Shown: in pieces, positions 27,879-54,359 of the stretch | Position numbering within the stretch: position 1 is the stretch's first letter | Layout: every line of letters begins with the position of its first letter | From: Tubulanus polymorphus | Lineage: Eukaryota > Animalia > Nemertea | Direction: 5' to 3' | Assembly: GCF_964204645.1 (NCBI RefSeq) | Contig: NC_134027.1 | Location: 7,286,485 to 7,350,484 of the forward strand | DNA: 64,000 nt | Made by a program: the position numbers and the translations under genes | The notes under the pieces: generated by a model | What the model saw: only the letters and a program-made list of their open reading frames with translations | Databases searched by the model: none | Told to the model about the DNA's origin: nothing

Positions 27879-28280
27879 AAGCAGCCCCTTGCCCGGGTTT
27901 CAGGCCCTGAATGACTTCTTTGAGGGTCGTCATTTTGAATTTTGGGCAGTCGAGAAACTTGTTTAGGAGAGAGAGGTCTATCACCGTCCGAAGGCCACCG
28001 GACGCCTTGGGGACGGTGAAGATCCTGGAGTACCATCCCCGAGAGGGATGACCCTGAACGCGACGCAGGGCTCCTTTTTCGATTAGTTCCCGGATCACCG
28101 GGGTAATGTGTTGCTTCTGACCTTTCTTGGGTCGCATGTCCGGAGGAGACCTTCCCAAGGGAGGTTTCTTCCGAAACTGAATCCGGTACCCGGCCGAGAC
28201 GGTTCGTGTCAGCCAGGTATCGCCAAAGATCTCGTACCAGCGGAAAGCGCAGCTTCTTAGGCATGCTCCCACTGGTACGG
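27845..28280 (-). pseudogene. DIRS RT N-terminal fragment
   Basis: PVGACL..W..GYRIQF, YSRIFTVPKASGGLRTVIDLSLLNKF, ASIDLKDAYFQVP, then truncated. Confidence 0.85.
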
Positions 28281-28285
28281 AGCCT

Positions 28286-32939: not shown

Positions 32940-33800
32940 GAAAAAAAGCTTGTAATATAGTTATTTCCAAAATCTCGATGTATTAAATTAGGCAGAAAAA
33001 AGTTAACCCCAATCAATCGATTATGTGCTTCGACTATTTTAACGGTGAAAACGACCAAAAAATTAAAGTTAGACGAAATTCTTAACCTTGTAAACTTTCG
33101 GACTATTTACATGAAAAAACGACCAAATATTGTAAAATATAGTTATTTCCAAAATCTCGATGTATTAAATTAGGCAGAATAAAAATAGATAAAATTATTC
33201 AACCTTGTAAACTTTCGGACTAGTTACATAAAAAAGACCAAATATTGTAAAATATAGTTATTTCCAAAATCTCGATGTATTAAATTTAGGCAGAAAAAAG
33301 TAAAACCCAACCAATCGCTTATGTGCTTCGACTATTTAAACGGTGAAAACGACCAAAAAATTGAAGTTAGATAAAGTTCTTAACCTTGTAAACTTTCGGA
33401 CTATTTACATGAAAAAAAAGACCAAATATTGTTAAATATAGTTACTTCCAAAATCTCGATGTATTAAATTAGGCAGAAAAAAAGTTAACCCCAATCAATC
33501 GCTTATGTGCTTCGACTCTTTAAACGGTGAAAACGACCAAAAAATTGTAGTTAGACGAAATGCTGAACCTTGTAAACTTTCGGACTATTTACATGAAAAA
33601 AGACCAAATATTGTAAAATATAGTTATTTCCAAAATCTCGATGTATTAAATTAGGCAGAAAAAAAATAGATAAAATTATTCAACCTTGTAAACTTTCGGA
33701 CTAGTTACATGAAAAAAAGACCAAATATTGTAAAATATAGTTATTTCCAAAATCTCGATGTATTAAATTAGGCAGAAAAAAGTTAACCCCAATCAATCGG
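32940..33800. repeat. Tandem array of mixed ~180-bp and ~115-bp units
   Basis: ATATAGTTATTTCCAAAATCTCGATGTATTAAATT recurs at ~32955, 33135, 33250, 33435, 33615, 33735; only about one degenerate unit in copy A (~13870-14230). Confidence 0.9.
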
Positions 33801-36494
33801 TGAAACACGTCGATAATGAACCCAGCAACCATGAAAGGTAACTTAATGTTCATGGAAAAATTTTGATTCATTCTAAATGAAATATTATTATTATCACATC
33901 TAAATGACATATTTTGTCATTACAGGATATCTTCTAATGATCATTGCAGCTAAATTTCAACTATACGAAAAAGCCCAGATTAAGATCAACTACTCGTCCA
34001 AAATCTACAAACTGGAACAGTGCACAGATAAGGCCAGAACTGAACCCAGCAATCTTTAAAGGTAAGTTGATATACATGTTATTACCGGTATATAGAAATT
34101 TCAGGCCTCATATGAATATCATTTGATAAATTACTATCATCAAAATCTATTTACCGCTCCACATGACTAATCTTTTATCTTTACTAGTCTTGAACAATGA
34201 TGAACTAGTCCTACTACTGCAATTAATTATAGGGGTTTAAATCGGCAATTGACGTCAATGACGTAAATTATGATAAATCTGTCTGAAATGTTTTGCTTTC
34301 TTCAATTTGTTTCAGCCAAACTACGTACATCATCAAGAAGATACCCACAACGATTACTGATTGACCCATTTGCTGATGAAAACTGCAGAAGCCCAGGTGA
34401 TAAGTCGAGGAGCCTGCGACGAATGAAACACTCAACGATCGATTCTTCTACAATCGGTGGTTGATTTCTATAAAACATTTTATCAAGAGAAGCAGAGACA
34501 ATAGTGTATCTTATAAACACTAATTCGCGCAGCAATAATGCTAATGGATTATCTTATTAACACTGATTCAGGATAAACACTGTTTTAGAAGCAGCAAAGA
34601 CAATAGTGTATCTTATAAATTGAGGAGCAGCATAAATAGTGCATCTTATAAACACTGAAATCCAGGAGCGGCGAAGATAATAGCGCACTTCTGTAGTAAA
34701 GTATTGATTTTTTTTACTTATCACCCTTTTTCAAATCAGTCTGATAAATAATACAGTTTTTTCGAGGATATTATAATGTTTCATGCAATATGTGAGTAAT
34801 AAAAGCTAAGCTCCATTAATTCAAGATATTGATCTTTGATCCTTGGTTGATGGAAGATAAGTCAAGTTAGGTTAGTGACGAGGGGTAAATGTCGGCGTCG
34901 AGCGCCTAGTTTGAACTCGTAGGCCTGTTGAGTTAACACCTAAACTGAGATATAGTTTCAACATGATATTGTGAGTTTTATCCTCGTGCTTACCATAGTA
35001 AAACAGTCAACAGTGGCTATGCCCCTGTCTGGCTTTGCCCTAGATATCACATAGTTAGGAAACATATAACATAACGTTAGGCCAGTGTTCTATGTGCAAA
35101 TAAGTATTTGCGGAATTGTAGATGTATTAATTTGATGGCATTTTATGATATTTTTTCAAAGGCCCATGTAACTAATTTGACAAATGAATCGTATATGTCA
35201 ATTTTCACATCGAGTTTGAACTTTGACCCTCCATCAATCCGTTTGATGATCATAGCTACCTATTGGAAAACAAAAGCTTCATCTAAGGAGACCATTATTT
35301 ACATTTGAGAGGTAAAGCTAGGAGTAACGAGGCATAAAGTTTTAGCTAGGACTTATTTTGAACGTTTTAACATTGTTTATAGCTGTTTGAACATCTTTTA
35401 TTGTAATGGGTAAATCCATCACAAGATGGCTCTCATGAATAATCACTTAATAGCTTCAAATCGGGTGTATAATGATTATTAAGGAGTGGCAGTGAATCGG
35501 TAGTGCTTTTTTTTAAATTGGATTAAAAACTTTACGGTGAAGAAATGCCTGCAGTTGTAAATAGAGTATATATAATACATAATACAAACTACAAGTACAT
35601 AAATTAATAAAAAATTAGATAAATAAAACAAACAATAAATAATAAATAGTAAATAATACAAAATAAAAGCACATAAATAAAAAGATAATATAAAAACTAG
35701 ATGCAAATAATTAACAACAATACAAACAAACAACAAATTAATACTCTATTCACATGAAAAGGCATTTTTTCAAATATTTATCAACAAGGTTATTCATTTA
35801 TCGAACAACTTTCCTAAAGTATGCCAAAAACCCGATATCTTTTCTGTTGTTATTCAAAGCATTCTATCGGACTCAATTGTTAATTGACAAAACAAATAAC
35901 TATAAACCTTAACTAAATCGAACACACTTAAAAAAATAACTGATATGATAGAATGCTTTGAATAACTGTGATGAAAGATCGACCATCCTTTGAACTAGCC
36001 GCGCTCAATCACGGCTGTGACTGTTTATTGTTATACTGGGGTAGACTTACTGTCTAAAAATTTGGTAAATACATTTTACTTTTTTAAAAGAATGTTAAGC
36101 AGCTATAAACTTAAGTTATTGATGTTATTGATTAGTTACCGATTGTAAAATTACGTTGATCTTTTCGAAGCTGGAAGAAAAAACGTCAGAATACTTAGTA
36201 TGTAATGTCAGGGTGTTTGGAAATCTTTAAGTCAGGGCAAGGTTGCCAAATTCTAGTTTTCTAGTGAAAGTAATGTTAATGAAAATGATATTAAGACTGA
36301 TTAATTGATACTAAGATTTCCAGAGTGAATCCGAGTGTCTCATCTCTAGTTTTAATGCTCTATGTTGGAGACTGTTATTATAACACAGTTCGCATGTTTG
36401 TAAATAAGGAGTAATTAGAAGATGGCGTTTTCATACCAGAGTACTAGAGTACTAGACACCACTCATCACCACAAGTAATTTTTTTTCCTAATAA

Positions 36495-39400
36495 ATGGGG
36501 GAGAATGAACACCAGCCAGAAAACAATAATGTTAATGAAAATCAATATCATTGTCCATATTGTAAAAAATACATTAATAAATCTAATAAATCTCATCATG
36601 AAAAATCTGCAAATCATATAAAAAATGTAATAGATTTTGAAACTCCAGAAAATTCCAATGAAAGAAAAGAACGATTAGAAAATATGAATGTGGATGAAAT
36701 AAAATGTGAAGTTTGTAATGAATTTATAGTAAAAAGGAATTATAAAAGACATCTCGAATCACAAAAACACCATCAAAATTTGAGTAATAATGTTTTAGGA
36801 AAAGATTAAACTAAATCCATTTCAAATAAACCTTACATGGAAAATGTTAGAAATTATATTGATTCACTAGAAATAAAAGATACAATTGAAATTTTAGAAA
36901 CATTACATAGTAAAATTGGTCCTGCGGCTATTATATTTAGATTCTTTAAAGGAACAACAATAGAACATTATAGTAAATTTTATGAAATAATAGAAAAAAA
37001 ACTAGATTTGATAACAGATGTTGAATATCCAAAAATTAGTATCTCTGGGAAAGTAAGTTTTATAAAGTCAGAAGAAAAAATGAATTATATTATTCAAACA
37101 CACTCTGAAGAAATAATTTCAAAAACACAAATAAAAGAGTAGTTAGAAAAAATATTTAATTAATTTAAATGTCATATTGAAGAAAGATATTTTGAGGGTT
37201 CTGGCTTAACATTGAATGAAATTATATATTTAGATTTAAATGTTTATAATACAAAAAGGAATAAAACATCAAAAAGTAAAACAATGTTTAAAAATGACTC
37301 AAACTTTACAACAGAAAAGGATATTAAAGCATCAAGTTATATTAAATTACCATTTACAACAAAAGCAGTAATAAATGTTCAAAATGAAGATAATAAATGT
37401 TTTCTATGGTCAATTATTAGTTGCTTACACCCAACAGAAGATATTACGCATAGTTTAAGAATAACAAATTACCGGAAATATGAAACATTATATAAAATTG
37501 ATCAATATCCAGTAACTATAAAAATGATACCCAAAATAGAAAAAATTAATAAGTTAAAAATAAATGTATTCGAATTAATGCAATTACCAAAGACAAAAGG
37601 TGAAAATATTAAAGATTATACATTGGAAGCTTTATATTTAACAGAATATTATGATGATGAAAATGCTATAGATTTGTTAAATTACAAAAAAGATGAAAAT
37701 GAACATTATATGTGGTTAAAACAAATTGATTTATTCTTTAGAACAGAAAGTGATTTTAACAGTCATAAAATTTATCTATGTAGAAAATGTTTATCTAAAT
37801 TTAGAACTGAGAATACATTATTAAAATATAAAGAATTATGTGATAATAAAGATTTTTGTAAATTAATAATGCCAACAGAAAAAGATTATAAATTGAAATT
37901 TACTAATCATAAATTTAAAAATATTGTTCCATTTGTAATTTATGGGGATTTTGAATCGTTGAATAAAGAATTAACTGATCAAGATAGAAAAGAAATATAT
38001 AACAAAAAGCAATTATTAAAATCAATGGATAAAGGAAATGAATTAAATGAAGACACAACACAAGACCCGCCAATTATAAATACAATTAAAAAAGTTCATC
38101 AAAGAGCTGCTGCTTATGGAATTTATATAAAATCAAATTATCCCGAATTATATGAAAGTCAATATATTTCTTTTAGAGGTGAAAATGTAGTTAATGATTT
38201 TTGTAACAAAATAATTGAATTAAAAAGTGATTTTGCAAAATTATTAAACAGAAATAAAAGAATAGTTATGACAAAAGAAGATGAAGTTGATTTTAATTAC
38301 TCAACTCATTGTTGTTATTGTGAAAAACGTTTTTATTCATTTGATAAAAAAGTTAGAGATCATAATCATTTAAATTCAAAATATCGTGGAGCTGCTCATG
38401 AAGATTGTAATTTACAAGCTAAAAAAGTAAATTTCGTACCAATATTATTTCATAATTTATCAGGTTATGATACCCATCTATTTATAAAACAATTATCAAG
38501 GAAATTGGGCACAACTAATCAAGAAATAGAAGAATATAATGCTATGAATGGTGTAAATGTAAGAAAATATGATTTTAAACTATTAGCTTAAACATCTGAA
38601 AATTATATTTCATTTCAATTTGGTTGCATTAGATTTTTAGATTCTTATAGATTTCTAGCAAGTTCATTAGATAATTTATCAAAAAGTTTAGTTGATAATG
38701 ATTTTATAATAACTCGATATTATTATCCAAATGACCAAGATTTTAAATTATTGAGATTTAAAGGTGCAATTTCTTATTCATTTTATAAAACACACAATGA
38801 TTTTAATGTAACAGAATTATTAAATGATCAATTTTATGATCAATTAAAAGAGGAGTATGTGAAAGACGAAGTGTTTAATAGAACATTAAATATTTGGAAC
38901 CATTTTAAGATGAAAAATCATGGGGAATTAGTTGATTTATATTTAAAATCAGATGTTATGATATTGGCTGACATATTTGAAAAATTTAGAGAAGTTAATT
39001 TGAATCATTTTAATGTTGATCCTTATTATTGCTACTCTAGTCCAGGTTTAACCTGGCAATGTGGTTTAAAATATACAAATGTAGAATTAGATTTATTAAA
39101 AGAACCAGATATGGTTTTATTATTTGAAAAATCAATTAGAGGTGGAATTAGTGGTGTTATGGGAGATAGATATTTTAAAGCAAATGATGAATATAAATTA
39201 TTATATATTGACGCCAATAATTTATATGGTTGGGCAATGATGCAACCTCAACCGTATAAAAATTTTATATTAACAGAAGTTGAAAATGATGATAAAACTA
39301 ATTGGGAAAGCGCAATTATGAGTTTAGAAGATGAAGCACCAATTGGTTATTTCTTTGTAGTTGATTTAGAATATCCTGAAAATATAAAGTTTAAAACAAG

Positions 39401-41523
39401 AAACTTACCTTATTGCCCAGAACATTTAACTGTAGATGATAGTTATTTAAGTGAATACCAGAAGAAAATAAAACCGAAAGATCATGTTTTTACAGAAAAA
39501 TTAATACTTACTCAAAATAATAAATACAATTACATTGTTCATTATAGAATGTTAAAATTTTATCTAAAACAAGGAATGAAATTAAAGAAAGTACATAGAT
39601 ATATTGAATTTAATCAATCGAAGTGGTAAGAAAAATATATAGATTTTAATACTCAACAGAGAACCATATCAAAAACAGATTTTGAAAAAGATTTCTTCAA
39701 ATTAATGAACAATAGTTTTTATGGTAAAACATGTGAAAATATTAGAAATAGAAATGATATTGAATTAGTAAATAATTCTGAAAGATTAAGACATTTACAA
39801 TCAAGTCCTAGACATTTAGGAAATAAAAGATTTGAAGATTATTTAACAGCAGTTAAATTAAAAAGAACGTCAATGAAATTTAATAAACCTATATTTATTG
39901 GTTCAACTGTTTTAGAAGTATCAAAATTATTAATGTATGATTTTTATTATAATGTTTTGCAACCACTTTTTGGGGAAAAGCATATTGAAATATTATATTT
40001 TGATTCTGTAACAGCTGACACCCCAATATTATTAAAATGTAATGATAAAATATTGATAAGAAGAATTTCAGAAATAATTCCAAAACAAAATGAATGTTAT
40101 ATTTCATATGGTGAAAAAGAATTAAAAAGAATAAATGGATTAATGGATGTTTGGACAAGAAATGGATGGAAAAAATTAAAGAATATTATTAGACATAAAA
40201 CAAATAAGAAAATCTATAGAGTTAGAACTAAATTAGGATTTGTAGATGTTACAGAAGATCATAGTTTAATTAAACGAAATGGTGATGAAATAAAACCAAC
40301 TGATATAAAAATTGGAGATGAATTATTACATAAAAGATTTTTCCAAAGAATGAATCATATGTCATTTGATGAAATTATTGATAATATTTATAACATAGAA
40401 CCCGAAACATTAGAAGAAAAAGAATATTTTATCAAAGGATTTTTCATGGGAGATGGTTCAGCAGGTGTGTATAATTATGTTTGGGGTAATAAATATTGTT
40501 GGTAATTATGCAATCAAGACTTAAAATTATTAGAAAGAATTAAGAAATTCTGTGAAGAAGTTTATTCACATTAAACATTCAAAATCATAGATGTTATGAA
40601 ATCATCAGCAGTTTATAGAATACTTGTAAATAATCCTAAAGATTTTGCTATAAAATATAATGATGAATTTTATATTCATGCAATAGTGAAAAGTAATACT
40701 TCAACTAAAGAAAAGATAGTACCAGATTATGTATTAAATGCAAAAAATAATTTAAGAAAGTGGTTCTTCATTGGATTCTATGCCGCAGATGGCACTAAAA
40801 AATTTACAAAGGATAAAAAGATAACCTTTGCACAGAAAGGAAAAGTTGCTATATCAGGATTAAATATATTATGCAGTTCATTAATATTTAATATGAATAT
40901 AGAATTAATTAAATCTAAACCAAATTGTTTTAATTTAAGGCATGTAGAAAAAGAATTAACAGAAGTTAAAGATTTATTTGAAATATATAACCCAACTGAC
41001 TATGTTTATGATTTATCAACAGATGATGGAACATTCAATTCTGGGTTCCCATTAATCCAAAAAAATACTGACAGTTACATACTAAAAATCAAGACAAATG
41101 ACATAACAAAAGACTTAAAAACATTAAAACATCATTTTGATTTTAGCAATTATCCCAAAGATCATGAACTATTTAACAATGATAATAAAAAGATTCCTGG
41201 TAAATTTAAAGATGAATTAGGGGGTGATGAAATGATTGAATTTGTTGGGATAAGAAGTAAAATGTATAGTTATAGAACAAAAGATCATGAAGCTAAAAAG
41301 TTAAAAGGAATAACAAAACATGTGGTTGATAAACATATAGAATTTCAAGATTATATAAAGTGTTTATAAAACTCAATTGTAATGAAACATAAAATGAATT
41401 GTTTAAGATCAGAAAATCACGAGATGTACATTAATGAAGTTGAAAAAATTAGTTTAGAATCCATTTGATGATAAAAGGCATATTTTAGATGATGGTATAA
41501 AAACATTACCTTATGGCCATTAA
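36495..41523 (+). pseudogene. Protein-primed family B DNA polymerase (pPolB) with N-terminal Zn-finger region, EndoVII-like insert and an intein; 8 in-frame stops and one late frameshift
   Basis: ORFs starting at 36495, 36837, 37212, 38751, 39705 and 40596 share one frame. Motifs: EGSG, SSYIKLP..INVQNEDNKCFLW, ExoI VIYGDFES, VRDHNH..YRGAAHEDCNL, ExoII FHNLSGYD, Pol A YIDANNLYGWAM, Pol B KLMNNSFYGKT, Pol C YFD/TDS, GKFKDE, SKMY; C-terminal PFDDKR..TLPYGH after a +1 shift near 41457. Confidence 0.93.
40005..41066 (+). mobile_element. Intein with LAGLIDADG homing endonuclease inserted in pPolB motif C (354 codons, two internal TAA)
   Basis: Extein YFD | block A SVTADTPILL; block B VDVTEDHSL; block C FIKGFFMGDGS; block E FFIGFYAADGT; block F YVYDLSTDDGTF; C-terminal KN | TDS. 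Removing it restores YFDTDS. Confidence 0.92.
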
Positions 41524-41798
41524 AACATAAAATCAATATCATCATACTCGAAATCACTATTGGCTTCTTCATTTTCATTTAATTGTTCTTGTATAATTTG
41601 TTTAGGTTCTTCCATTTCATTTTTCTCATTTAAATAAAGTTCTATCTTGTACCACATTTCATCTCGCTCTCTTTGTTTCTTTTTGTTTGTTAATTCGTCA
41701 AATGGAATTATGATATCGATGTTTAAATAATTTACAATCTTATTTAAAAAGAATTCATAATTTATTGAATCTGTTATTCTATTTTCCAAATGATACAT
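41520..41798 (-). CDS. Polinton hypothetical protein, acidic C-terminus
   Basis: 92-aa ORF convergent with polB. Confidence 0.5.
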   Translation of the reverse strand: MYHLENRITDSINYEFFLNKIVNYLNIDIIIPFDELTNKKKQRERDEMWYKIELYLNEKNEMEEPKQIIQEQLNENEEANSDFEYDDIDFMF

Positions 41799-41847
41799 TA
41801 ATATTTGTTAAAATATTTTTTTTTTATATTTTCCATATCTTCTTCTG

Positions 41848-42849
41848 TTAATTTGATTTTTCATAATAATCGTTAAATAATAAATATAAATACATTTTCT
41901 TTTGTTTTGTGTTAAATTTTGACGGAATAATTGTTTTTATAATATCTTTTTTAGTTATTTCACCATTTTTATTTTCTATTATTTTCATTTTTTCAAGCCA
42001 TTGCATATATTCTGGTGTATGATCTTCTATAGAAAATATTTTAAAAATTTCATCTAGATAATTTAATTTTGGATCTATGAGAAAATTTCTAGTTTTTTCT
42101 TCACCCCATAAATTCTTTTGCCATCCACAATCAACACAAAATAACACAGTACCTTCTTGTCTTAAGGTCGCGTAATTACATTGTGGACATTTTCGTTTAT
42201 AATTTATTGGTAATAGATCTTCATTAAGCTCTTGGTATTTTCTTACGTTTTCTTTATGTTTTATTGTTCTATTATGTAGATTTGAATTATTTGTTGTAAT
42301 AATCAATTTACAATATTTACAATAATATGTTTTTCTTGTTAATTCATTATATTGTTTTTCTAACTTTTCAACTGTTTCTTTATTATCTTGTAACGTTTTC
42401 TCATATTTTATTTTTTCTGATAAACTATTTTTTCTTTCATTGAATTCAGTTTCAAATTTATTAGAAATTTTATCTATATGTACTTTACGAAATTGATGAT
42501 TCTCCCAATCTTCTATATTTTCAGGGCTATATTTTACTCGACAAGGCTCGCAGAAATGATCTTTTATATTATCCTTGTCATAGAATAAGAAAGGTCTTTT
42601 CCAAATAATTTCAGGTTCAACTTCAACAGAATTACTATTACTTTCATTACTATCAACATTAGCCGTTGCGCCATTAATTTTACACTTCTCTGAATGTTTT
42701 TTAACATAATTTCTTGAGAATAATTTATTACATTTTGGACAGTTTAGTTTAGGGGGTTTATAATTTTCATCATGTTTTTTCATATGTCGAGCCATATTAC
42801 TTTTTCTTAGAAATTCACCACAAATTTCGCATGGTATCTTCTCATCCAT
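41848..42849 (-). CDS. Polinton multi-zinc-finger protein
   Basis: CEIC..HMKKH, CPKC..H..C, CEPC..H..H, CKYC..H..H, CPQC..CVDC; TAAATG start. Confidence 0.75.
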   Translation of the reverse strand: MDEKIPCEICGEFLRKSNMARHMKKHDENYKPPKLNCPKCNKLFSRNYVKKHSEKCKINGATANVDSNESNSNSVEVEPEIIWKRPFLFYDKDNIKDHFCEPCRVKYSPENIEDWENHQFRKVHIDKISNKFETEFNERKNSLSEKIKYEKTLQDNKETVEKLEKQYNELTRKTYYCKYCKLIITTNNSNLHNRTIKHKENVRKYQELNEDLLPINYKRKCPQCNYATLRQEGTVLFCVDCGWQKNLWGEEKTRNFLIDPKLNYLDEIFKIFSIEDHTPEYMQWLEKMKIIENKNGEITKKDIIKTIIPSKFNTKQKKMYLYLLFNDYYEKSN

Positions 42850-42917
42850 TTATTAAGGAAAAATTTTATTAAAATTAATTTTTAGTGATGAGCGGTAATT
42901 TTTTTATGTTATAAATA

Positions 42918-43674
42918 ATGGTAAATTAAAAGAATACAGAATATTTGTTGATTCTAGAAAACTTACAAATTATAAATCACATAATTTAATAGTTCAATTA
43001 GATAGAGAATTTAAGAATTGTATTGATTTAAAATTAGTAAATATAAGTTTATGTAACTCATTTTACAATGTATCGGATAAAAGTAGAACATTTAATTTTT
43101 TCAATCTTTTACAAAAAAAGGAATAAATGGTTTTTTATATATTTAAAACCAGGATTATATAATTTAGATACATTAGCACAAGAAATTAATAGAAAAGCTC
43201 GAGCTAAATTAGGAAGTGATTCCGGATTTAGTATTAGAATTTTAAAAAGTGATAGTTCTAATAAAATAAAGATTAGGTTAGCTAATGACGAACAATTTAA
43301 ATTTACAGTAAGAAAACCTTTAGGTAAACTGTTAGGAAATAAACCCAGATATTGTTACAGCATACCCAGAAGGTAGATCAAACTTAATACCTTTCACACA
43401 TTTTTATATTTATTGCAATTTAATTGACCCAACAAAAACATTTGAAGCAACTAAAGATACCATTTGTAATTCTAGTATATTAAATATTTTACCATTAAAA
43501 AATGTTAAACAATTTGGAACGCAAATAAATTATAATTTAACTGAATGTGATTTTAAACCTTGTATTCCACATTTCAATAATTTTAAATTAGAAATAAGAA
43601 ATCATAATGGTTATTTAATTGATTTGAATAACTTTCCTGTAATTTATGAATTAGTTATAAGATGTAGAGAGTAA
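42918..43674 (+). pseudogene. Probable minor capsid protein (penton, single jelly roll), frameshifted
   Basis: Fragments RIFVDSR..NSFYNV, PGLYNLDTL, YIYCNLID, ILNILPL, KLEIRNHNGYLIDLNNFPVIYELVIR resemble recalled Polinton penton motifs. Confidence 0.6.
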
Positions 43675-43690
43675 TTTTTTCACTATATAA

Positions 43691-44044
43691 ATGAATATAA
43701 CTGTTGGACCGAGTATATGTTTTGGGTTCGATTTTAAACGTGAGAAAGAAATGAAATTTAACATTAATGATGTAATTACACATGTCAAAAATATTGCATT
43801 TTCTAATGAAACAACATTTGAGTATGAAACAACAATAGATAAAGAAACTTTAAATGTAGAAAAGATTACTAATTTGATTAGAGAATCTTTAAGATTTTAT
43901 GAATTAGATGAAGATTTTATCATCGATGATATTAAAAAAATAATAATTGAAATATATACAAATGAAACTAGTAATGAAATAAATGTTGAAATAATCATCA
44001 CTAAGATAACCAAATATTTTAAAGATGTTAATTTTTTTGATTAA
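43691..44044 (+). CDS. Polinton hypothetical protein
   Basis: 117-aa ORF, TAAATG start. Confidence 0.6.
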   Translation: MNITVGPSICFGFDFKREKEMKFNINDVITHVKNIAFSNETTFEYETTIDKETLNVEKITNLIRESLRFYELDEDFIIDDIKKIIIEIYTNETSNEINVEIIITKITKYFKDVNFFD

Positions 44045-44047
44045 TAA

Positions 44048-44269
44048 ATGAGTGATAATAAGTGGATAATAACTGGATTATATAATGGAGCATTACTATC
44101 AGTTGGAACTGTTGGTTATTCAATGGTATTAAAAAAGGTATTCAAAATGGGAAGTGTTAATGCTGATAGATTTGATATCAATGATATTTTAAAATTAACA
44201 TTAGCAGTTACTTTATCTAATTTAACTATTGATTATTTAGAAAAACAAAAATATATTCCTCCCATATAA
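44048..44269 (+). CDS. Polinton small hydrophobic protein
   Basis: 73 aa, two hydrophobic stretches, TAAATG start. Confidence 0.65.
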   Translation: MSDNKWIITGLYNGALLSVGTVGYSMVLKKVFKMGSVNADRFDINDILKLTLAVTLSNLTIDYLEKQKYIPPI

Positions 44270-44293
44270 ATGCGTAATTATTTTACTAAATAA

Positions 44294-44716
44294 ATGGCTT
44301 CTGCAATTATAACTGTCATAGGATCAGCAATTGTTAACGCTTTAGCATTTACTGCTGGCGGTTATTTATTTAAGCATATTGATAAAAATAGTTCATTAGG
44401 AGAACAAAGAAGACATAACTTAGCATTAGAGAAATACAATAAAGCAGCAGAAGAATACAGAGAAAAACGACAAAACTATATGGATTATATTAACAAGGAA
44501 TTATATGATCAGAAGATTTCACATAGAGATTTTCAATCAGTTGATGATGCAATGAGTTTATATAACGCAGTAACCAATAAAGAAAAATTACATCTATACA
44601 AACCTAAATTATCAGATTATTATACCCCAAGTAAAGAACAACAGAAATATGAAATAATATGGATTTTAGGTGGAACTGTTATTGTTATATTTGTAGCATA
44701 TAAATTTACTAATTAG
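44294..44716 (+). CDS. Polinton membrane-associated protein
   Basis: Hydrophobic N-terminus MASAIITVIGSAIVNALAFT, helical RRHNLALEKY region, C-terminal TM segment. Confidence 0.7.
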   Translation: MASAIITVIGSAIVNALAFTAGGYLFKHIDKNSSLGEQRRHNLALEKYNKAAEEYREKRQNYMDYINKELYDQKISHRDFQSVDDAMSLYNAVTNKEKLHLYKPKLSDYYTPSKEQQKYEIIWILGGTVIVIFVAYKFTN

Positions 44717-44735
44717 TAATTTTTTTTCTAAATAA

Positions 44736-45137
44736 ATGGAAGATAAAGTTGATAGCATTGATATTATTCCTCATGATATAAATAAAACTAAATTAAAAAT
44801 ATATTTAGAAAAACAAATATTAGAATTTGAAAGTGACTTAAAGACAAAAAAGAAAAATTATTTAAAAAGTAAAATTATATATTATCTTATTATTAGTGGT
44901 TCGGTTACAATTAGTTCTGTAATAACATTTCTAGCAATATTCAGTCCATTAACACCTTTAGCTATTTCAATTGGTGTATTAGGATTAAGTTCAAGTGTTT
45001 TAACTGGTATAAGTTCAAAATTAAATATAAAAAGTAATAAAGAAAAAATTAAAACTAATATAAAAGAAATTAATAAATTAAAGAATACACTAGATTATAT
45101 AATAAGTTTAAATGGTCATATAACAGTTGAAGAATAA
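44736..45137 (+). CDS. Polinton two-TM membrane protein
   Basis: Hydrophobic hairpin IIYYLIISGSVTISSVITFLAIF...LAISIGVLGLSSSVLTGI between basic helices. Confidence 0.65.
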   Translation: MEDKVDSIDIIPHDINKTKLKIYLEKQILEFESDLKTKKKNYLKSKIIYYLIISGSVTISSVITFLAIFSPLTPLAISIGVLGLSSSVLTGISSKLNIKSNKEKIKTNIKEINKLKNTLDYIISLNGHITVEE

Positions 45138-45186
45138 GATAAATTATTAAAAGAATTAATAAATTATCAATTTTTTAATTATATAA

Positions 45187-46572
45187 ATGGTAGATAGTTT
45201 TCCAAAAGCTTTCCAATATAATAAATCAATTAAATATAATATTCCAGCAATAGATTTTAATAAAGATATTACATATAGAAATGAAGTTTTAGATTCATTA
45301 ACTAATTTAGAAATTTATGTTACTGAAACTAATAATTTTAATTCAAAGATGGAAAATATATTTCATGTATATTTAATTAATTTTAAAAAATTGAAAGATG
45401 AAAAACAATGGTTATTAAAATCTAATATGAAGTATTGGCAGAACCAATTAAATTTTGCTGTTTATTGTGCAACAACAGGATGTGGAATTAGTTGGAATGA
45501 TCATTTGAATAATTCTAAATATAAATTAATTCAAAGTTTATTTAGATTTCATACATACTTTCAAATCAGAATAATATTAAATGAATTAGAGTGCGCTTTA
45601 CCAGGATCTAGGTATTTTAAAGAATTAGATAATAATATTAATTTAACAAAGTTTTATAAAATTTGTAATGAATTTAATATAGATATGAATAATTTTGATT
45701 TTAGAACAAAAATTGGAACAATAAGATCACTTCCTTGCCCTAAAAAGATTGCAGAATATTGTGCACTTCCCATACCATCTAATAGTTTGTATAATATCTA
45801 TAGTAATAAATTAGGTTATGGTAAAATAGAAACTAAGGATTTAGAAACATTAAATTTCAATAAATTACCGACATTTTATGATAATTTAAAACAAGAAAAC
45901 AATAATGGTTGGGTTTATTTCATTTTAGAAAATAATGAAGGTTTTACAAAATCAGGTATACAAAGAATAAATCAATCTATTAGAACTTATTTGATATGTA
46001 TTTAGGTGCGCAAGTTGAAACAAGATCCCCAATAATTGGAAATTTAAATACATCATTTGATACACAGAAACAATTCAAAGTATTATTTGAAGATTCTATT
46101 CATAATGATAAAAATAGATCGATTCCAGAAAACATTGTAAGATATCAAAATTATTTAGATAAATCTCATGTAAGACTAAATTATTGTATAGGCCCTAATC
46201 TATTAATTATTTCTAATGATTTAGTACTAAAGATGGGAAACATAATTGGTTACAATAATCTAATTAAAACCGCAACAATAAATAATTCATTTGGATTAAA
46301 TGATATAAATAAAAAGATTATTACCGCTCCAAAATTAATGGAAGGTGAAAAAAATAAAAAACATTCAATCAACAGAAACTAAAACTAAAAATATTAAATT
46401 GCATAATGATTCTAAAATAAAAGATTACAATACATCAGAAAATATAAAAACTGATAATATTCAACATGATATAATTAAAACTGATAATGATAATAAATTC
46501 CATGAAAATACTAAATTAGCTTTAACTTGTACAGGAATTGTTATAGGAGGAATATTATATTTTAAATTCTAA
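45187..46572 (+). pseudogene. Polinton hypothetical protein (YWQNQLNFAVYCATTGCGIS motif) with C-terminal TM, split by two frameshifts
   Basis: ORFs 45187-46005, 45996-46382 and 46345-46572 overlap end to end; only the first has a TAAATG start. Confidence 0.65.
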
Positions 46573-46588
46573 TTTTTTTATTATATAA

Positions 46589-48019
46589 ATGGATGTAGAA
46601 GGTGGAGAAGATATTGGAATGGATCCTTTAGATGAACCTGGTATAACTGATGAACAACAACCTGATTTTAGTGAAACAAGTTTTAATGACGGTAATGAGT
46701 CAGGATATAATAATAATTTAAATATGCCTGATTATATTAGAAATGCAGAATCACAATTAAATCCTGAAAATTTAGACCCAGATTTAGTAAAACAAGATTT
46801 AGATAATCTAAACAAAATACCTAAATTAGAAGATTTAATTGAAAAATCTAAACTTAACATAAATGATGAAGACGTTGGACTTTTAGCAGATCAATTAAAA
46901 TTTTTAGATAATGGTAAATGTTATTATCGTTTGAAAGGTGATTATTATATTGATATCACTTATAAAAATAATAAAAATAAAATATCAGAATCAACTTTAG
47001 AAAAATTAAAACCAGATAGAATTAAAAGAATAAGTAATAGTAATGAAATAACTGATGTTACACAAAAAGAAATAGATGATAATATAGACGTATTTAAACA
47101 AAAAATTAATGAATTATTTGAAATAATCAAAAAGAAATCAGAAACAGAAACAACTTCTGAACAGAATATAACTTCCAAAACTAGTAAACTTAAATCAAAT
47201 AAAGTTTCAATTGAAAAACTTTTACCGAATGGATTAATTGATGCAACAGATCAACAATTAGAAGATTTAAATAATATATTTTCTGTTGAAGCAATTACAG
47301 AAATTAAAAGTATAAGGCTTGCATCTGATAAAATTGCGCATGATAAAAGTATAAGAGATTTTAAAATTAGAACTTTAGAAAAAGAATTAACTGATAAAAA
47401 TAAAGAAATAGAACAATTAAAATTAGATAGAGATAATAATGTTATTGAAGAAATTGAATTTAAAAAAAGAAATGCATATTTAGAAAAAGAAATTGATGAT
47501 TTAGAATATAACATAGAATTACAAAAAGAAGAAATTAAATTATTATTAAAATCATATGATTATAATATTAATAGATTAAAAGTTATTTTTAAAGATTTAT
47601 TGATAAAACCAAATTCTGAAATATCATTGAAAGATAGAATAAAGTTATTATTTAAATTAGAAGGAATAACAATTCTTTCAATTCTAACAGCTGTAACTAT
47701 GTTATTTACAACAATTGGTTTAGCAATATCAAATGCTTTAAAATCTACTCCTACTGCAAATAAACCGGATAAACCCCCAGGTAATAATTCTATACAAGAT
47801 AAAGTTAAAGATGGTTTAAAGAAATTAGCAAAATATTTATGGGAACTATCTAAAAAATCTGCTGCAGCTTTACCAAGAATTATTGCATCAATTGTTGGTT
47901 TTATATTGAAATCTGCTGGGAATATTCTTAACTTTGCCGCTGAACATATTATTTTATTTTTAATTACAGTTGTAAGTGCTATTATTTTTGGGTTAGTGAA
48001 TATGATTAAAAATAAATAA
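46589..48019 (+). CDS. Polinton coiled-coil membrane protein
   Basis: 476 aa; acidic N-terminus, long coiled coil, hydrophobic GITILSILTAVTMLFTTIGLAI and C-terminal hydrophobic helices. Confidence 0.75.
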   Translation: MDVEGGEDIGMDPLDEPGITDEQQPDFSETSFNDGNESGYNNNLNMPDYIRNAESQLNPENLDPDLVKQDLDNLNKIPKLEDLIEKSKLNINDEDVGLLADQLKFLDNGKCYYRLKGDYYIDITYKNNKNKISESTLEKLKPDRIKRISNSNEITDVTQKEIDDNIDVFKQKINELFEIIKKKSETETTSEQNITSKTSKLKSNKVSIEKLLPNGLIDATDQQLEDLNNIFSVEAITEIKSIRLASDKIAHDKSIRDFKIRTLEKELTDKNKEIEQLKLDRDNNVIEEIEFKKRNAYLEKEIDDLEYNIELQKEEIKLLLKSYDYNINRLKVIFKDLLIKPNSEISLKDRIKLLFKLEGITILSILTAVTMLFTTIGLAISNALKSTPTANKPDKPPGNNSIQDKVKDGLKKLAKYLWELSKKSAAALPRIIASIVGFILKSAGNILNFAAEHIILFLITVVSAIIFGLVNMIKNK

Positions 48020-48039
48020 TTAATTTTTTTGTTAAATAA

Positions 48040-49317
48040 ATGAGTGGGAGTTATATAAGTCCTTCTAAGATTTCTAGAATATCTAATGTTATTAAAGCAG
48101 AAAGATCACATCATATAATTACTCATAACCCTTCTTATATTAATCCCGATGAAACTTTATATGTTAGAATTCCTCGATTAACACAAAATACTTTTTATAT
48201 TCCAAATAGTATTTATCTATCAGCTGATATAAAAGTAACTGGTCATGATAATAATTATGTTGTTGATAATGTTGGGAGATATTTGATTAAAAAATTAACT
48301 ATAAAGATTGGTCCAGAAACAGTTTTCTCATTAGATGATTATAATTTATTTATGCATTATAAAGATTTATGGTTAACTAAAGAAAATAGAAATAATATGA
48401 TATTTCAGGGTATTCAATCGGAAAACCATAATAAATTAAGATCAGGAGCTAATGACGCAATAGTAACTCGTGCCACAGATAATTTGATTAAAAAGATTAA
48501 TGGAAGCAAATATAAAATTCCATTAGACTTTGAATTGATAAATAATAATGCACCTTTATATAAATACGCAATTCAAGAAGATATTATATTTGAGATAACA
48601 TTTGCTCCTGTAAATGAAATTGTATTATCTAGCGTTGTTAAAGATATGGGTTATAAATTATCGAATATATGTTTAGAATATGACACAGTAACTAATGAAA
48701 ATATTGCTAGCACAATTCAAACTCAATACAATCAAGGATTTTCATTATTATATGATTATATTGATAAATTTAAAACTGTAACTATTAATGCAAATGATGA
48801 AATAATTTTTGAGAATATTAACTTCCCAAGAAGATCTATTAAAGGTATATTAATATTTTTTACCATTGCAACATATTCTAATGGTGCAATAAAGGTAGAT
48901 AATTATTATAATCCTGAAATAACAAAAGTAGAAATAACTATCGAAGGAATAGCAAATAAAATATTTTGTCAAGGAATGAGAATGATAGATCAGTGGCCAG
49001 AAATTAGAAAACATTTTATGAATGAAAAAGTAAAATCATCTGAAAATTGTGATATTAATCAAATTGATTATTATACCGGTAATAAATATGCATTATGGTT
49101 AGATTTTAGAACAACAGAGGATAATCCATTACATGGTTCTGGGAAAAAACTACAGAACACTAAAGATGGAATACAATTATTCATGGCAAAGAAAAGAGGA
49201 GACAAAAATTTCCAAATGCACATTTATATTATATCTGACGCACAATTAAATATTGTAAATTCACAATTAGATAGTATTCAATATAAGAAATATAAAGTTA
49301 AAATTAAGGATATATAA
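48040..49317 (+). CDS. Probable major capsid protein (double jelly roll)
   Basis: 425 aa, beta-strand-rich; NPSYINPDETLYVRIP, NVGRYLIKKLTIKIG, YKDLW, IPLDF, LSNICLEYD and YALWLDFR resemble recalled MCPs of invertebrate Polinton/adintovirus elements; adjacent to integrase and ATPase. Confidence 0.75.
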   Translation: MSGSYISPSKISRISNVIKAERSHHIITHNPSYINPDETLYVRIPRLTQNTFYIPNSIYLSADIKVTGHDNNYVVDNVGRYLIKKLTIKIGPETVFSLDDYNLFMHYKDLWLTKENRNNMIFQGIQSENHNKLRSGANDAIVTRATDNLIKKINGSKYKIPLDFELINNNAPLYKYAIQEDIIFEITFAPVNEIVLSSVVKDMGYKLSNICLEYDTVTNENIASTIQTQYNQGFSLLYDYIDKFKTVTINANDEIIFENINFPRRSIKGILIFFTIATYSNGAIKVDNYYNPEITKVEITIEGIANKIFCQGMRMIDQWPEIRKHFMNEKVKSSENCDINQIDYYTGNKYALWLDFRTTEDNPLHGSGKKLQNTKDGIQLFMAKKRGDKNFQMHIYIISDAQLNIVNSQLDSIQYKKYKVKIKDI

Positions 49318-50428
49318 ATGGGTGGTAAAAAAACTCCTAATACTAAAGAACAATATTTAAGCAATTTATATTACAACCCTGAGAGTACCAAAAATATATG
49401 GCGTCAAGTAAAACAAGATAAATTAGATAAGATAATCCCACAAAATTTAGTTAAATATAAAGATATAAATGAATTTATGTTAGAACAACCAACATATACA
49501 ACACATAAAAAAATTGTTAGAAAATATAAAACTCGTAAAACTATGGTAAGTTATGTAGATCAACAGTGGCAAGGAGATTTAATTGATATGAAAAATGTTA
49601 AGAAAGATAATGATGATTATTGGTGGTTATTGAATATAATTGATATTTTTAGTCGTTATGTATGGAGCTTCCCACTTTATAGAAAAGATGCTGTACCAAC
49701 ATCAAATATTTTAAGAAAATTTCTTTCGGATGATAAAACTAAAACCAGAAAAAATACAATTTGATGATGGAAAAGAGTTTGATAATTCACTTGTTCATGA
49801 ACTCTTAGATAATCATAATATTAAATATTTTTCAACAAAATCGGATAAAAAAGCAGCAGTTGTTGAACGATTTAATAGAACATTAAGAACAAGAATGTGG
49901 AAATATTTTACAGCAAATAATACTTTTAAATGGTTTGATGTTTTACCAAAATTGACAGAAGGATATAATAATTCTTATCATTCTTCTATTGGAATGAAAC
50001 CTATTGATGCTAGAAAACCTGAAAATGCTGAAATTGTTTGGAATAATTTATATGGAGCATTTCTTGTAAATGATTTTGGTGAACCTAAATTTAAAGTTGG
50101 TCAAAATGTTAGAATTTCTAAGTATAAAAAGATATTTGACAAAGGATACGATCGAAATTTTACTAGAGAAATATATAAAATAAAAAAGGTAATAACAACA
50201 AAACCATATGTCTATAAATTAGAAGATTTAAATGGTGAAGAAGTTGATGGGTATTTTTATGAAGAAGAATTAAGTTTAACTACTGAAAATCTAGAACAAG
50301 AATATAAAATTGAAAAAGTATTAACAACAAAAACTATTAAAAGAAAAAAATATTCTTTAGTAAAATGGGTTGGATGGCCAGATAAATTCAATGAATGGAT
50401 ATTATCAAGTAAAATTAAAAATATATAA
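49318..50428 (+). pseudogene. Retroviral-like (RVE) integrase with C-terminal chromodomain, one frameshift near 49740
   Basis: QWQGDLIDM..LNIIDIFSRY (D), QFDDGKEF (D), KAAVVERFNRTL (E), YNNSYHSSIGMKP; chromodomain YKIEKVL..LVKWVGWPDKFNEWI. Confidence 0.93.
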
Positions 50429-51037
50429 ATGAATAAGGAATTATTTATATTTGAGCCTTATAATATGTTAATTTCTGGTGTAACAAATTGTGGAAAAACT
50501 TATTTTATATTAAATTTATTAGAAACTGTTTATAAAAACTTTTTTGATAATATAGTATTATTTTGTCCAACATATGAATTTAATCAAACTTATGATAGAA
50601 ATATTACTAGAAATAATGAATTTATTATATTAGATCCTAAAACAGTAAAAGAAAATTTAGATAATTGTATTAAAATAGCAATAGATATTTATAAAGGATC
50701 AAATACATTATTCATTATAGATGATTGTGCAAATTTACATGATTCAAAAATTAGAGAGAGTGAGTTATGTTATTTAGCTTTTTCTGGCAGACATTTTGGG
50801 ATAACAACTTGGATTTTAAATCAAAAATATAATTCAATTGTTAAAGACTTTAGAGAAAACATTAGATTTCTAGTTTTATTCTACAATAAAGATAGAAAAT
50901 TGATGAAAAATGCACTTGAGGAAAATGATATAATTCCACATGATTTACATAATGAATATATGGATAAGTTGAAAAATATTAAAAGATCAAAATTACTATT
51001 TAGATTACAACACCCATTTAAATATGAATTTATTTAA
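50429..51037 (+). CDS. A32/FtsK-like genome packaging ATPase
   Basis: Walker A SGVTNCGKT, Walker B LFIIDD, GRH motif, ILNQKY. Confidence 0.9.
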   Translation: MNKELFIFEPYNMLISGVTNCGKTYFILNLLETVYKNFFDNIVLFCPTYEFNQTYDRNITRNNEFIILDPKTVKENLDNCIKIAIDIYKGSNTLFIIDDCANLHDSKIRESELCYLAFSGRHFGITTWILNQKYNSIVKDFRENIRFLVLFYNKDRKLMKNALEENDIIPHDLHNEYMDKLKNIKRSKLLFRLQHPFKYEFI

Positions 51038-51039
51038 AT

Positions 51040-51320
51040 TCAACAAGCTTGTTAATCTATTACATATTTAGTTAAATTCTAGTTGAATTCTAGTTAGTAG
51101 TAGTTGGAACAAAAATCAACTAGATTTAACAATATTTTAACTAGCTTGTTAATCTAGTATATTTTTAGTTACATTCTAGTTGAATTCTAGTTATTAGTAG
51201 TTGGAACAAAAATCAACTAGATTTAACAAGAAATAAATAAAAACAACAATATTTCAACTAGCTTGTTAATCTAGTTGAATTCTAGTTGCATTCTAGTTGA
51301 ATTCTAGTTGCAACAACACA
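51040..51320. repeat. Intergenic CTAGTT/AACTAG-rich direct and inverted repeat region within the Polinton
   Basis: CTAGTTGAATTCTAGTT occurs four times; ~100-bp duplication (GTAGTTGGAACAAAAATCAACTAGATTTAACAA twice); AACTAGATT vs AATCTAGTT inverted. Confidence 0.85.
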
Positions 51321-51341
51321 ACTGATTTATTTGTTATATAA

Positions 51342-51947
51342 ATGGGAGGTGAAAAGAAAATAAAATCTAAAAATGGTGATGTTCCAATTGAAAAAACTTT
51401 AGATGATTTAGGAATAACAGAAAACAAATTAATTCCAGATGATGGTGTTTTAAATAATGTTACAACAAATACTAATTATGAATATTATCTTTATTGTAAA
51501 CATCAATTAGAAATATTAATAGCATCTGGAAAATGTAAAAATTTTGTCGGTAAAAATTTAACTTATAATGAATTAGATACAATGAAATCAGATGAAATTA
51601 TTAGATTATTTAAGATTTATGAAACTGCGAGAACAGCTAGAATAAATGACGCGATATCAGAAAATGTAGTAAAAGGTTATAGTAAATTATGTAATTATAT
51701 GCTGCCAATTCAAGATGAAAATAGATTATATGCTGATTTAAAAAATGATTATTTAGTTATGACCGAATTAAATAAATGGATTGGATATTTATCATTTCAA
51801 TTAGGTGGATTTATGACATTATTATCAACTGGGGTTATAACATTTTCAAATATTGAAAGTAAAAATATTTCTATAATAAATGAACAAGGTGGAAGAAGTG
51901 AAGGAATTAACTGTAAAGAAAAAACCGAGATCACAGAAACAAATTGA
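51342..51947 (+). CDS. Polinton hypothetical protein
   Basis: 201-aa ORF, TAAATG start, hydrophobic segment near the C-terminus. Confidence 0.65.
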   Translation: MGGEKKIKSKNGDVPIEKTLDDLGITENKLIPDDGVLNNVTTNTNYEYYLYCKHQLEILIASGKCKNFVGKNLTYNELDTMKSDEIIRLFKIYETARTARINDAISENVVKGYSKLCNYMLPIQDENRLYADLKNDYLVMTELNKWIGYLSFQLGGFMTLLSTGVITFSNIESKNISIINEQGGRSEGINCKEKTEITETN

Positions 51948-52247
51948 ATGGTCTCGGCAATTAGGAATTAAATCACAAGAATATAAAAAAGCTGTAAAAG
52001 AAAAATAAGTAATAAAAATGTTAATAAAAATGGTGAAAATATTGTTATTTCTACTCCTTCTAATGATAGAATATTTGATAAATGTCTATATTTTACAGTT
52101 GGATTTGTAATTGTATTCATTTTGATTGGGTGTAATTGGTATAAGAAATCAAATAAAATTCATGATATTAATAATTCTGAAACAACTGCTATCAAAAATG
52201 AAAATAATTCTGAAATTCCAAAATTGACAATAAAAAAAATGGATTAA
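51880..52247 (+). pseudogene. Polinton small basic protein with TM segment, disrupted
   Basis: TAAATG start MNKVEEVKELTVKKKPRSQKQIEW, then a stop/frameshift, then LYFTVGFVIVFILIG. Confidence 0.5.
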
Positions 52248-52435
52248 TATTTTAGAAAAAAAGCAAAAAAAATAATTTTTTTAATTAATTGAATATTAAT
52301 TGAATATCACCATGTGGGTGCCATACGGCACCATCTCACTACTTTTGTCTATCTATGCGGAGCAATTAAATTGTCCAGATAAGTCATTTCGGATTCTAGA
52401 TATTCATTATTTTTATTAATTTATTTTTTTAAAAT

Positions 52436-52762
52436 TTAATCAACAATTTCTAAATCATGATGGCCATCTTCATTTTTTCCATGATAGATTATTTTAAATC
52501 CTTCTAAATCTTTTAATTCCTCTGTACTCAATGAAACCCATTTATCAGGTAAAAATACTTTAAATTCTCGCGATGTACTAACATTACAGTAGCTTAAATT
52601 AGCTGATACTTTCTCTCCATATCTAGTATTTATCTTTTCTAATTTCAATATTTTATGTTCAATTTCTTTTGTAACTTCAACTCACTTTTTTATTTCAAAT
52701 TGTTTTTTTGCTGGTTTTATTCTGTTATTTATTGTTGCTAAGAATGCTTTTCTATCTCCCAT
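52436..52762 (-). pseudogene. Polinton small protein starting at the right TIR, one in-frame TGA
   Basis: TAAATG start at 52762, MGDRKAFLATINNRIKPAKKQFEIKK*VEV... in frame with ORF 52648-52436. Confidence 0.55.
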
Positions 52763-54359
52763 TTATAAGGAAAACAAATTACTTGTGGTGATGAGTGGTG
52801 TCTAGTACTCTAGTACTCTGGTATGAAAACGCCATCTTCTAATTACTATTAGGAACTTTCATGATGATTCCTCCATTAAGATATTATTGTTGTATTATTA
52901 TTTGTTGTATTATTGCGAATAAAAGGATGTACATTTTCATCTCTCATGTTGAAACTTTTCAGTTGTTAAGTTTTATAGCAACAATTGCACTGTGGTGCTT
53001 TTCAGTGGTTCATAAAATACTGATTTAATTAAGGGCCTGTCTAAAATAGCAGCAGTTTCTTGATAACTTTAGGATACAGTGCTTTTGGTCAATTGTCCTA
53101 GCTTTGTTTTGATTATCGGTTTAACCGCGTCTGTGTGGGGCCTGTAATATCTGGACTCAAGGAATTTCTGATCTTTAGAGTTGTTATATCTACCTATCAA
53201 GTTGAATAATATAATAAGAAGTAACTGTAGCTTTGTCAGTCAAACCATATTTGTTTGAAGTTACGGTACTTGATTTATCTTGAATTGCCACGAAGAAAGA
53301 CCTATATTATAGTTTGCAGGGTTTGATCTAAGGAATAAATTCCACTTGACCTTGGGGCAAGCATATATGTAATATCTATTGAAGTGAAGTGTTAATTAGT
53401 AGATTGTGCTAGCTATATTCAAATTGACAGGTGAAAAACTCTATCTTGTTGATTGCATATAAGAGGATACCTCCAAAATACTTTGTATAAATGTAACATG
53501 TGAGAAAATAACCAATTTGATCATGTCTGAGCAAAGGTGGCAAGACTCTAGTTATCTTGTTAAATAAAGTTTATGAAAATTAAATCAAATGTTTAGTTAA
53601 TCATAAGCTTTCCAGTTTAAATTTGTATTTTTATCTCTGATTTTCAATTTTTTATGTTGGAGACTTTTTTTAAAATACAGGTCATCTTTTTGTAAATGAG
53701 GCACTTCCTCAAGTACATAAATACGTCATTTAGGTATAATTGTTGTTGTGGGATAAAACGACATGTTCATGTCAATTGAACCATTACATGAGTGAAACTC
53801 TCGTTTACGCCTATGGTGGTTGGACAAAAGTTGCTTTTTAAAGTCCACGTGTTTGATGAGCTTACATTATAATTCCTCGAGCACTCCTGGCATTTTCTAT
53901 AATTGTTGTACGAGAATAAATATGATTGATTTTAAAATTTGTCATTCGTTTAGTTAAGTTTGATATAGCAAATCCTGGATTGAGACCTAAATCGCTTAAG
54001 ATAAACTGAATTAATGAAGAAATGAAATCGATTTAAGAGTTAAACCTTTTATGAAACTCATGTGTTCTACTTCTTTTTTTCAACCGAAAAAAATAATCCC
54101 ACCACCAACTGGTCTGCCGACAAGCTTTAGATGCGATTATATCGACAGCACAAAACCATACGTTCCGACACTGCACATTACGCTGGGCCCGTTGACAGTT
54201 GTTAACGTTGTAACTCGATAGTTGTAACTCGCAACTGGCAACTACTAAAGCAACTGGCAGTGTCGTCTCAGGGCTTCCATACTATTAACCGATGTAACCA
54301 CCCTCGCTTGCCAGGGGTCCAGTATCACTCCCGAACTCGCTTCCACCAGTTTGGGGAAC

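Follow-up and report, generated by a model that had tools for sequence, protein, structure and literature searches.

Mavirus shares a promoter motif with Cafeteria roenbergensis virus (CroV; PMC8547959), Gezel-14T shares a promoter with Phaeocystis globosa virus (PgV), and Sputnik and mavirus are described as using the late promoter of their helper (10.1101/2022.07.28.501842). A long-standing question is whether the Polintons of animals live autonomously or as parasites of larger viruses, and in the published accounts consulted neither virions nor helpers are established. Here we describe a Maverick/Polinton at positions 36410–52847 of a 64,000-nt stretch of the nemertean Tubulanus polymorphus (contig NC_134027.1; hereafter the window), in which almost every gene starts with ATAAATG. 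With mavirus/EMALE–CroV, Sputnik–mimivirus and Gezel-14T–PgV, this element has in common the make-up of a small integrating or dependent double-stranded DNA virus that encodes no RNA polymerase and displays what looks like a giant-virus promoter motif. In those systems the hosts are protists, the helpers are identified, the motifs are TCTA or AAAATTGA and the case is supported by experiment, whereas the window Polinton has an animal host and a Polinton-type capsid and is known here from sequence alone.

The element spans 16,438 bp at 23% GC. It has AG...CT ends, terminal inverted repeats (TIRs) of 93 nt that are 97% complementary, and a 6-bp target duplication identical at 5 of 6 bases; the ends and the duplication are those of a Maverick/Polinton. 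The hallmark genes are present: PolB, an RVE integrase with a chromodomain, an A32 ATPase, a double jelly-roll capsid protein and a penton protein. All of these, together with the TIRs, the 6-bp duplication and a VLTF3-like gene, are shared with group 2 Maverick-Polintons (Polintoviricetes, adintoviruses), as is the lack of a detected protease. The adenain-like cysteine protease that marks group 1 gave no Pfam match in the 21 element open reading frames (ORFs) scanned or in the scanned ORFs of the related locus L001, which agrees with group 2 as the consulted literature defines the groups. The window element and its clade differ from group 2 in their clade-wide T-run and TAAATG starts and in an intein of giant-virus type. 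RNA polymerase families likewise had no Pfam match in the 21 ORFs, in line with the statement of a first-pass annotation of this DNA that none is encoded.

Animal Polinton-like elements have been proposed as poxvirus parasites. These entomopoxvirus-associated Polinton-like viruses are described as lying in occlusion bodies, ~12 kb long and with divergent capsids (PMC11296320), and it is by this description that they are set against the window Polinton. The words 'promoter' and 'motif' have 0 occurrences in the main text of that study, as has 'promoter' in the main texts of PMC8502044, PMC11131425, 10.64898/2026.06.19.733378 and 10.1101/2024.03.23.586382. We found no publication on the motif in animal Polintons; most subscription papers, and supplements, lay outside the search and could hold a mention. 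Helper-promoter use, known in protist virophages, seems not to be in print for animal Polintons.

Gene starts in the window element were chosen by homology to loci L001, L002 and L005 and by continuity of the polB frame, giving 15. ATAAATG is present at 14 of them (14 of 17 if the pieces at 36837 and 41798 are counted as genes of their own), and the fifteenth, that of a penton-like gene at ~42915, reads TAAATA under the same upstream T-run. The first-pass annotation had listed 14 starts with ATAAATG and had described its use as near-universal among the Polinton genes; we find it at all 14 of the listed starts, and the broader description also stands. Over both strands of the element ATAAATG occurs 28 times, half of them (14) at gene starts; among the 640 ATGs elsewhere, ATAA comes before only 14 (2.2%). 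Enrichment over background, a check named with the original claim, was assessed against a stricter null, the first ATG after a stop in short ORFs: the null rate is 37/423 (8.7%), against which 14 of 15 gives P ~2e-14.

T is found at −12 in 13 of the 15 starts. The exceptions, 49318 and 50429, are exact TAA-ATG stop-start junctions, as had been pointed out. The exact string TAATTTTTT precedes 7 of the 15 starts (6 of the 14 listed before). The motif is also present, as stated before, at the inner end of both TIRs: the left TIR (36410..36502, + strand) ends in a T-run and the TAAATG start of polB, and the right TIR (52755..52847, − strand) in the TAAATG start at 52762.

A search with a capsid alignment fetched 47 loci. 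The motif clade comprises the window and the 16 loci whose capsids are at least 51% identical (17 loci), and the other 31 loci form the outgroup. TAAATG stands at 47 of 53 homology-defined starts in the clade and at 1 of 85 in the outgroup; for all kept ORFs the counts are 72/93 and 2/157. Matched for GC content, clade and outgroup give 12/14 versus 0/9 at 28–35% GC and 6/8 versus 1/37 at 35–46% GC. A capsid tree was built from 43 rows, of which 14 were motif, 7 non-motif and 22 unlabelled proteins; on it, the motif needs one change, with a Shimodaira–Hasegawa-like approximate likelihood-ratio (SH-aLRT) value of 98. We conclude that the motif is a real, clade-defining signal. An origin by chance in 77% AT DNA, in which TAAATG occurs 53 times over the element, carries virtually no weight: the counts for the window already refute it, and the motif is retained at 36–44% GC and absent from AT-rich outgroups.

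On the same tree the window capsid groups with animal Polinton proteins, one of them from a bivalve, and it is ~10% identical to the mavirus capsid. By capsid and protease the element falls outside the virophages (Maveriviricetes), given a Polinton-type capsid grouping and no protease in the ORFs scanned. Capsid searches of viral contigs found no relative. Three starts, L004:1642, L008:1359 and L013:2322, read TAAATA(n)ATG in place of TAAATG and resemble the TAAAT(G/A) variants of poxvirus late promoters described in PMC5294985.

The profile of 60 non-redundant starts has A at −18 (78%), −17 (67%) and −4 (85%), T at −14 (75%), −13 (78%) and −12 (90%, 54/60), and G at +4 in 70%. The consensus places AAWTTTT roughly between −18 and −12 and ATAAATG after it, with G as the usual next base. 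By comparison, 131 non-start occurrences of TAAATG have a flat profile, and a T-run of at least five is found at 9 of them as against 31 of the 60 starts. Spacing this constant suggests that a protein recognises the signal in the DNA. Five distinct head-to-head pairs (in L002, L009, L010, L011 and L012/L013) carry the motif on both genes within 25–36 nt; they represent 6 of 12 matches to a regular expression, the remaining matches not lying between two such starts.

Were the motif a translation signal, either for stop-start reinitiation on a polycistronic RNA or as an unusual start context, it would fit the exact junctions at 49318 and 50429, which lack T at −12, and the favoured G at +4. However, an upstream gene lends its stop to only 3 of the 72 starts and is absent altogether from divergent pairs, and T is at −3 in 47 of 53 clade starts where outgroup genes mostly have the usual A (49/85). 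For these reasons stop-start coupling and Kozak-type context fail as general explanations. Moreover, the ATPase keeps its TAAATG when in a divergent position (L011). We regard a translational role as highly improbable.

In published accounts, the late promoters of vaccinia consist of TAAAT overlapping the start codon, most often with G as the next base, and of a conserved T at the tenth upstream nucleotide (PMC11980589, PMC5294985). Slippage on TAAAT produces 5′ poly(A) leaders (PMC6211774), and in the annotation table of a fish poxvirus many genes are marked with TAAATG (PMC4542343). The Polinton starts have this layout of TAAAT(G) at the start and a T-run at a fixed distance. Shared with vaccinia are TAAAT(G) over the start codon, the upstream T-run and a T ~10 nt upstream, the Polinton T peak lying 9 nt before the T of TAAAT and 10 before its first A, that is, within one base. 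The Polinton adds a strong AA at −18/−17, and in its clade all genes carry the layout, polymerase and integrase included.

We think it likely that the T-run with TAAATG at the gene starts of the clade represents nucleocytovirus late promoters, and hence that these elements would depend on a helper much as virophages do. The promoter interpretation gains support because conservation is clade-wide, the T-run is fixed, the motif occurs in divergent pairs, AATAAA is at expectation (see below) and the intein is of giant-virus type. Each gene would then be a compact unit with almost no 5′ untranslated region, read by the RNA polymerase of a nucleocytovirus and its late factors. Initiation would fall within AAA, and slippage, as for the late mRNAs of vaccinia, would add a poly(A) leader in place of the T at −3. 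Until a helper, pox-like or iridovirus-related, infects the cell, integrated copies would be silent; thereafter the element would be expressed, replicated and packaged in its own capsid. The intein may have been acquired during such co-infection.

AATAAA occurs 166 times in clade coding strands, against 168 expected, with a density of ~4–5 per kb in the AT-rich members. Twelve AT-rich outgroup genes have 10 against 18 expected (z −2.7), and all outgroups pooled have 24 against 31 (z −1.8). That AATAAA is at expectation in the clade is modest evidence against transcription by Pol II. It bears on the alternative of an autonomous nuclear virus in which host Pol II is directed by a factor of the element, VLTF3-like or zinc-finger, the likeness to late promoters being a relic or convergence. 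A VLTF3-like piece is indeed present (41520..41807, − strand; Pfam E 1.5e-4, below the family cut-off), perhaps as the 3′ part of the gene that starts at 42849; the element integrates and so enters the nucleus; and some starts read TATATAAA, which is TATA-box-like. On general grounds, however, a TATA box abutting the ATG would place the Pol II start inside the gene, and the AATAAA density betrays no avoidance. VLTF3-like genes, moreover, occur in the motif-less sisters L018 and L022 and are known from coral polintoviruses (PMC11131425), so VLTF3 does not explain the motif and was rejected as its cause. We consider an autonomous nuclear virus unlikely.

The VLTF3-like piece gave no match by word search, in the Atlas or in pairwise comparison with giant-virus VLTF3. 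It is a speculation that the VLTF3-like protein might modulate helper late transcription.

The motif might instead be the 3′-end signal of the upstream gene, through overlap with AATAAA or as a T-run terminator, packed against the next start. Many starts read AATAAATG, a co-oriented gene ends within 60 nt of 23 of 72 starts, and coding strands avoid T-runs. Against this, for 46 of the 72 starts no gene in the same orientation ends within 60 nt (a number inflated by contig edges), the motif is placed at both TIRs and in divergent pairs, and the commonest upstream hexamer is ATATAA (20/60). A 3′-end signal is very unlikely as the origin of the motif; the late-promoter interpretation would accommodate a T-run that serves both purposes.

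Runs of five are strongly avoided in clade coding strands (window 36495–52762 and L001–L023), at 73 versus 141 for T and 502 versus 654 for A; in outgroup coding strands A-runs are not avoided and T-runs weakly so. This avoidance may reflect a slippage-prone polymerase. Depletion of TTTTTNT was considered as a sign of the pox early terminator and rejected, all T- and A-runs being depleted too.

The intein lies in motif C of polB (junctions YFD–S and N–TDS; 40005..41067, + strand), is interrupted by stops and was bounded by comparison with the intein-less L028 polymerase. Its description as giant-virus-like is upheld. Its top 150 matches break down into long non-Polinton proteins (122), short ones (27) and a Polinton piece (1). 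All 20 long relatives that were scanned are RNA-primed PolBs, the giant-virus type. Searching with an alignment of 15 intein-related PolBs, we retrieved the best 80 out of 219 viral loci (L152–L231), which from their gene content we take to be iridovirus-related; RNase III, a reductase, DUF5767 and D5 primase were found in the group. ATAAATG stands at 215 of 757 unique ORF starts in these 80 loci (~28%), compared with a short-ORF null of 6%, and in two giant-virus bins the pattern occurs 36 versus 12 and 29 versus 5 times against a reversed control. The TAAATG core is not pox-specific. These starts share the ATAAATG core and related PolB inteins with the Polinton but have T at −12 in 50% (pooled) and favour A over G at +4 (53% versus 22%). 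At listing level, our literature search surfaced no paper on TAAATG starts in iridovirus-related giant viruses. Many more gene starts in L152–L231 have TAAATAAAAATG-like forms. Intein invasions of polinton polymerases were proposed earlier (PMC11161782).

The frequency of TAAATG starts in the intein-related giant viruses means that the helper may be iridovirus-related, and the pox-like helper put forward by the first-pass annotation is not established. We place the odds between the two at about even: a pox-like helper is favoured because the T spacing fits, and an iridovirus relative because of the related inteins and because a nuclear phase, described for iridoviruses (PMC5294985), could reach an integrated copy. 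Searched with the single-promoter pattern, viral contigs gave 97 loci, 25 with the match at an ORF start; several of the best loci were giant-virus-like and others were phages, so that most matches are attributable to chance. The divergent-pair pattern gave 6 loci, 2 of them giant-virus-like.

Transcription could also be due to a cytoplasmic partner that is not a virus but has a pox-like RNA polymerase, in the manner of a yeast-type linear plasmid, or to some other helper. Yeast virus-like elements are reported to use a TAAAN initiator with slippage (PMC6211774). The intein, however, points to giant-virus PolBs. We know of no such non-viral partner in animals, which also counts against an explanation that we find scarcely credible.

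Several points weigh against late promoters and a viral helper. The motif has a single origin, so the loci represent one evolutionary event and are not independent tests. Clade and outgroup were drawn after motif and identity had been seen, with near-duplicates included; decay in many outgroup loci may have hidden true starts; and the capsid tree comes from a quick, unbootstrapped search. Just 12 genes make up the AATAAA control, a small one, and the pooled outgroups reach only the lower z value given above. The vaccinia side of the comparison is a published description. Those giant viruses whose inteins are closest do not have the fixed T (107/215 versus 54/60 in Polintons). Moreover, the intein has as its closest neighbours seven short pieces that are unplaced, and the intein tree gives weak support for linking it to PolBs, so no donor is identified; the extein tree has no named references and carries long-branch warnings. 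The initiation site, leaders, helper identity and silence of integrated copies are all inferred, and a cytoplasmic polymerase would still need a way to reach an integrated copy.

Overall, the virophage-like helper dependence first suggested for this element gains support from the promoter and intein evidence, but not in the sense of an active parasite, the window copy being broken in most core genes. We see roughly an even chance that the clade consists of true endogenous virophages in which every gene was rewired to a late promoter belonging to an undescribed pox-like or iridovirus-related invertebrate virus, with an intein taken from such viruses and tens of genomic copies that infection would activate and that might act as an inherited antiviral defence. 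If so, the promoter profile could be used to search for that missing helper. With a promoter signature of 25 bp separating one clade from its sisters, the question of autonomy or parasitism becomes testable; the signature predicts a large DNA virus of the animal host, for which its motif offers a means of detection. A further suggestion is that dependence on a helper could be readable from sequence and gained within Polintons.

Judged from its reading frames, the window copy is dead, and its family is multicopy. The gene for DNA polymerase B, of Polinton type with N-terminal zinc fingers and a TAAATG start (36495..41520, + strand), is a single frame interrupted by 12 stops, at 36807, 37140, 37161, 38589, 39627, 40503, 40572 and 41367 and at four positions near its 3′ end; the ORF at 36495 is the head of this broken frame and no gene of its own. 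On both sides of the intein the product is 42–45% identical to the polymerase of L028, a capsid-bearing locus. What we take to be PolB motifs are visible in the frame, a candidate for the protein-primed family B polymerase of Polintons; it had no polymerase-family match in Pfam or PHROGs, and its L028 homologue had none in the PDB. By comparison with L001, the penton, the integrase and four further genes are broken or truncated.

Mean depth of raw DNA reads per bin is ~100–1,150 over the element, mostly >220, versus 15–55 at several flank positions, which suggests, as a rough estimate, tens of diverged copies. In the reads, some copies have a short TIR-internal duplication spanning the T-run (window 36460–36485 and 52772–52797), and intergenic T-run length differs among copies (40 of 212 variable sites listed).

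The remaining genes start with TAAATG except where stated. A zinc-finger protein gene, assigned from sequence, Pfam and homology, lies on the − strand (41848..42849). On the + strand follow the broken penton (minor capsid) gene (42912..43671), with TAAATA beneath the usual T-run, whose L001 homologue matches the mavirus penton (E 2e-6, from a low-confidence predicted model); genes recognised by homology for 117 aa (43691..44044), 73 aa, conserved (44048..44269) and 140 aa, conserved (44294..44716); a truncated membrane-protein gene with a weak SLATT-like match (44736..45167); and, again by homology, a conserved ~440-aa gene in broken pieces (45187..46560) and a 476-aa coiled-coil/membrane gene (46589..48019). 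The double jelly-roll major capsid protein (48040..49317, +) was identified by its predicted structure, a model (pLDDT 83) that matches the capsids of PBCV-1, SGIV and mavirus. The RVE integrase with chromodomain (49318..50428, +; rve E 1e-4, and 1.5e-10 for the L001 homologue) is in two frames. Its start and that of the A32-like packaging ATPase (50429..51037, +; Pox_A32 E 2e-13) use the stop of the upstream gene as the TAA of TAAATG. The sole sizeable non-coding stretch of the element (51042..51312) is CTAG-rich, with tandem repeats of 97 bp and 11 bp evident in the sequence. Beyond it lie, by homology, a conserved 201-aa gene (51342..51947, +), a broken ~130-aa gene (51880..52247, +) whose start is within the preceding gene, and a broken ~110-aa gene started from the right TIR (52436..52762, −). 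The starts at 51880 and 52762 open ORFs of 42 and 26 aa here, broken homologues of L001 genes of 130 and 114 aa.

Locus L001, a close relative of the window element, also has a deoxynucleoside kinase gene with a TAAATG start (L001:10340–10981, − strand; Pfam dNK E 1.7e-31). Such genes are typical of large DNA viruses. A search with this kinase gave one 37% relative and indicated no donor.

The flanks of the Polinton hold animal genes: a BTB-Kelch gene (2209–3678), a sulfotransferase gene (7123–8106), an ALG13-like exon with a weak match (54524–54600) and a SENP8-like protease (56421–57065), which reaches no more than 58% identity to any other protein and whose named matches are scattered across animals. 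The regions 19831–22540 and 25746–30546 include a GC-rich retroelement with reverse transcriptase/RNase H, what is presumably a recombinase-like ORF, and a related gag-like ORF in a near-perfect inverted duplication of 4.8 kb. A diverged repeat array with a period of ~230–260 bp occupies 14100–19400, and a second patch of it lies 14.7 kb away at 33000–34100.

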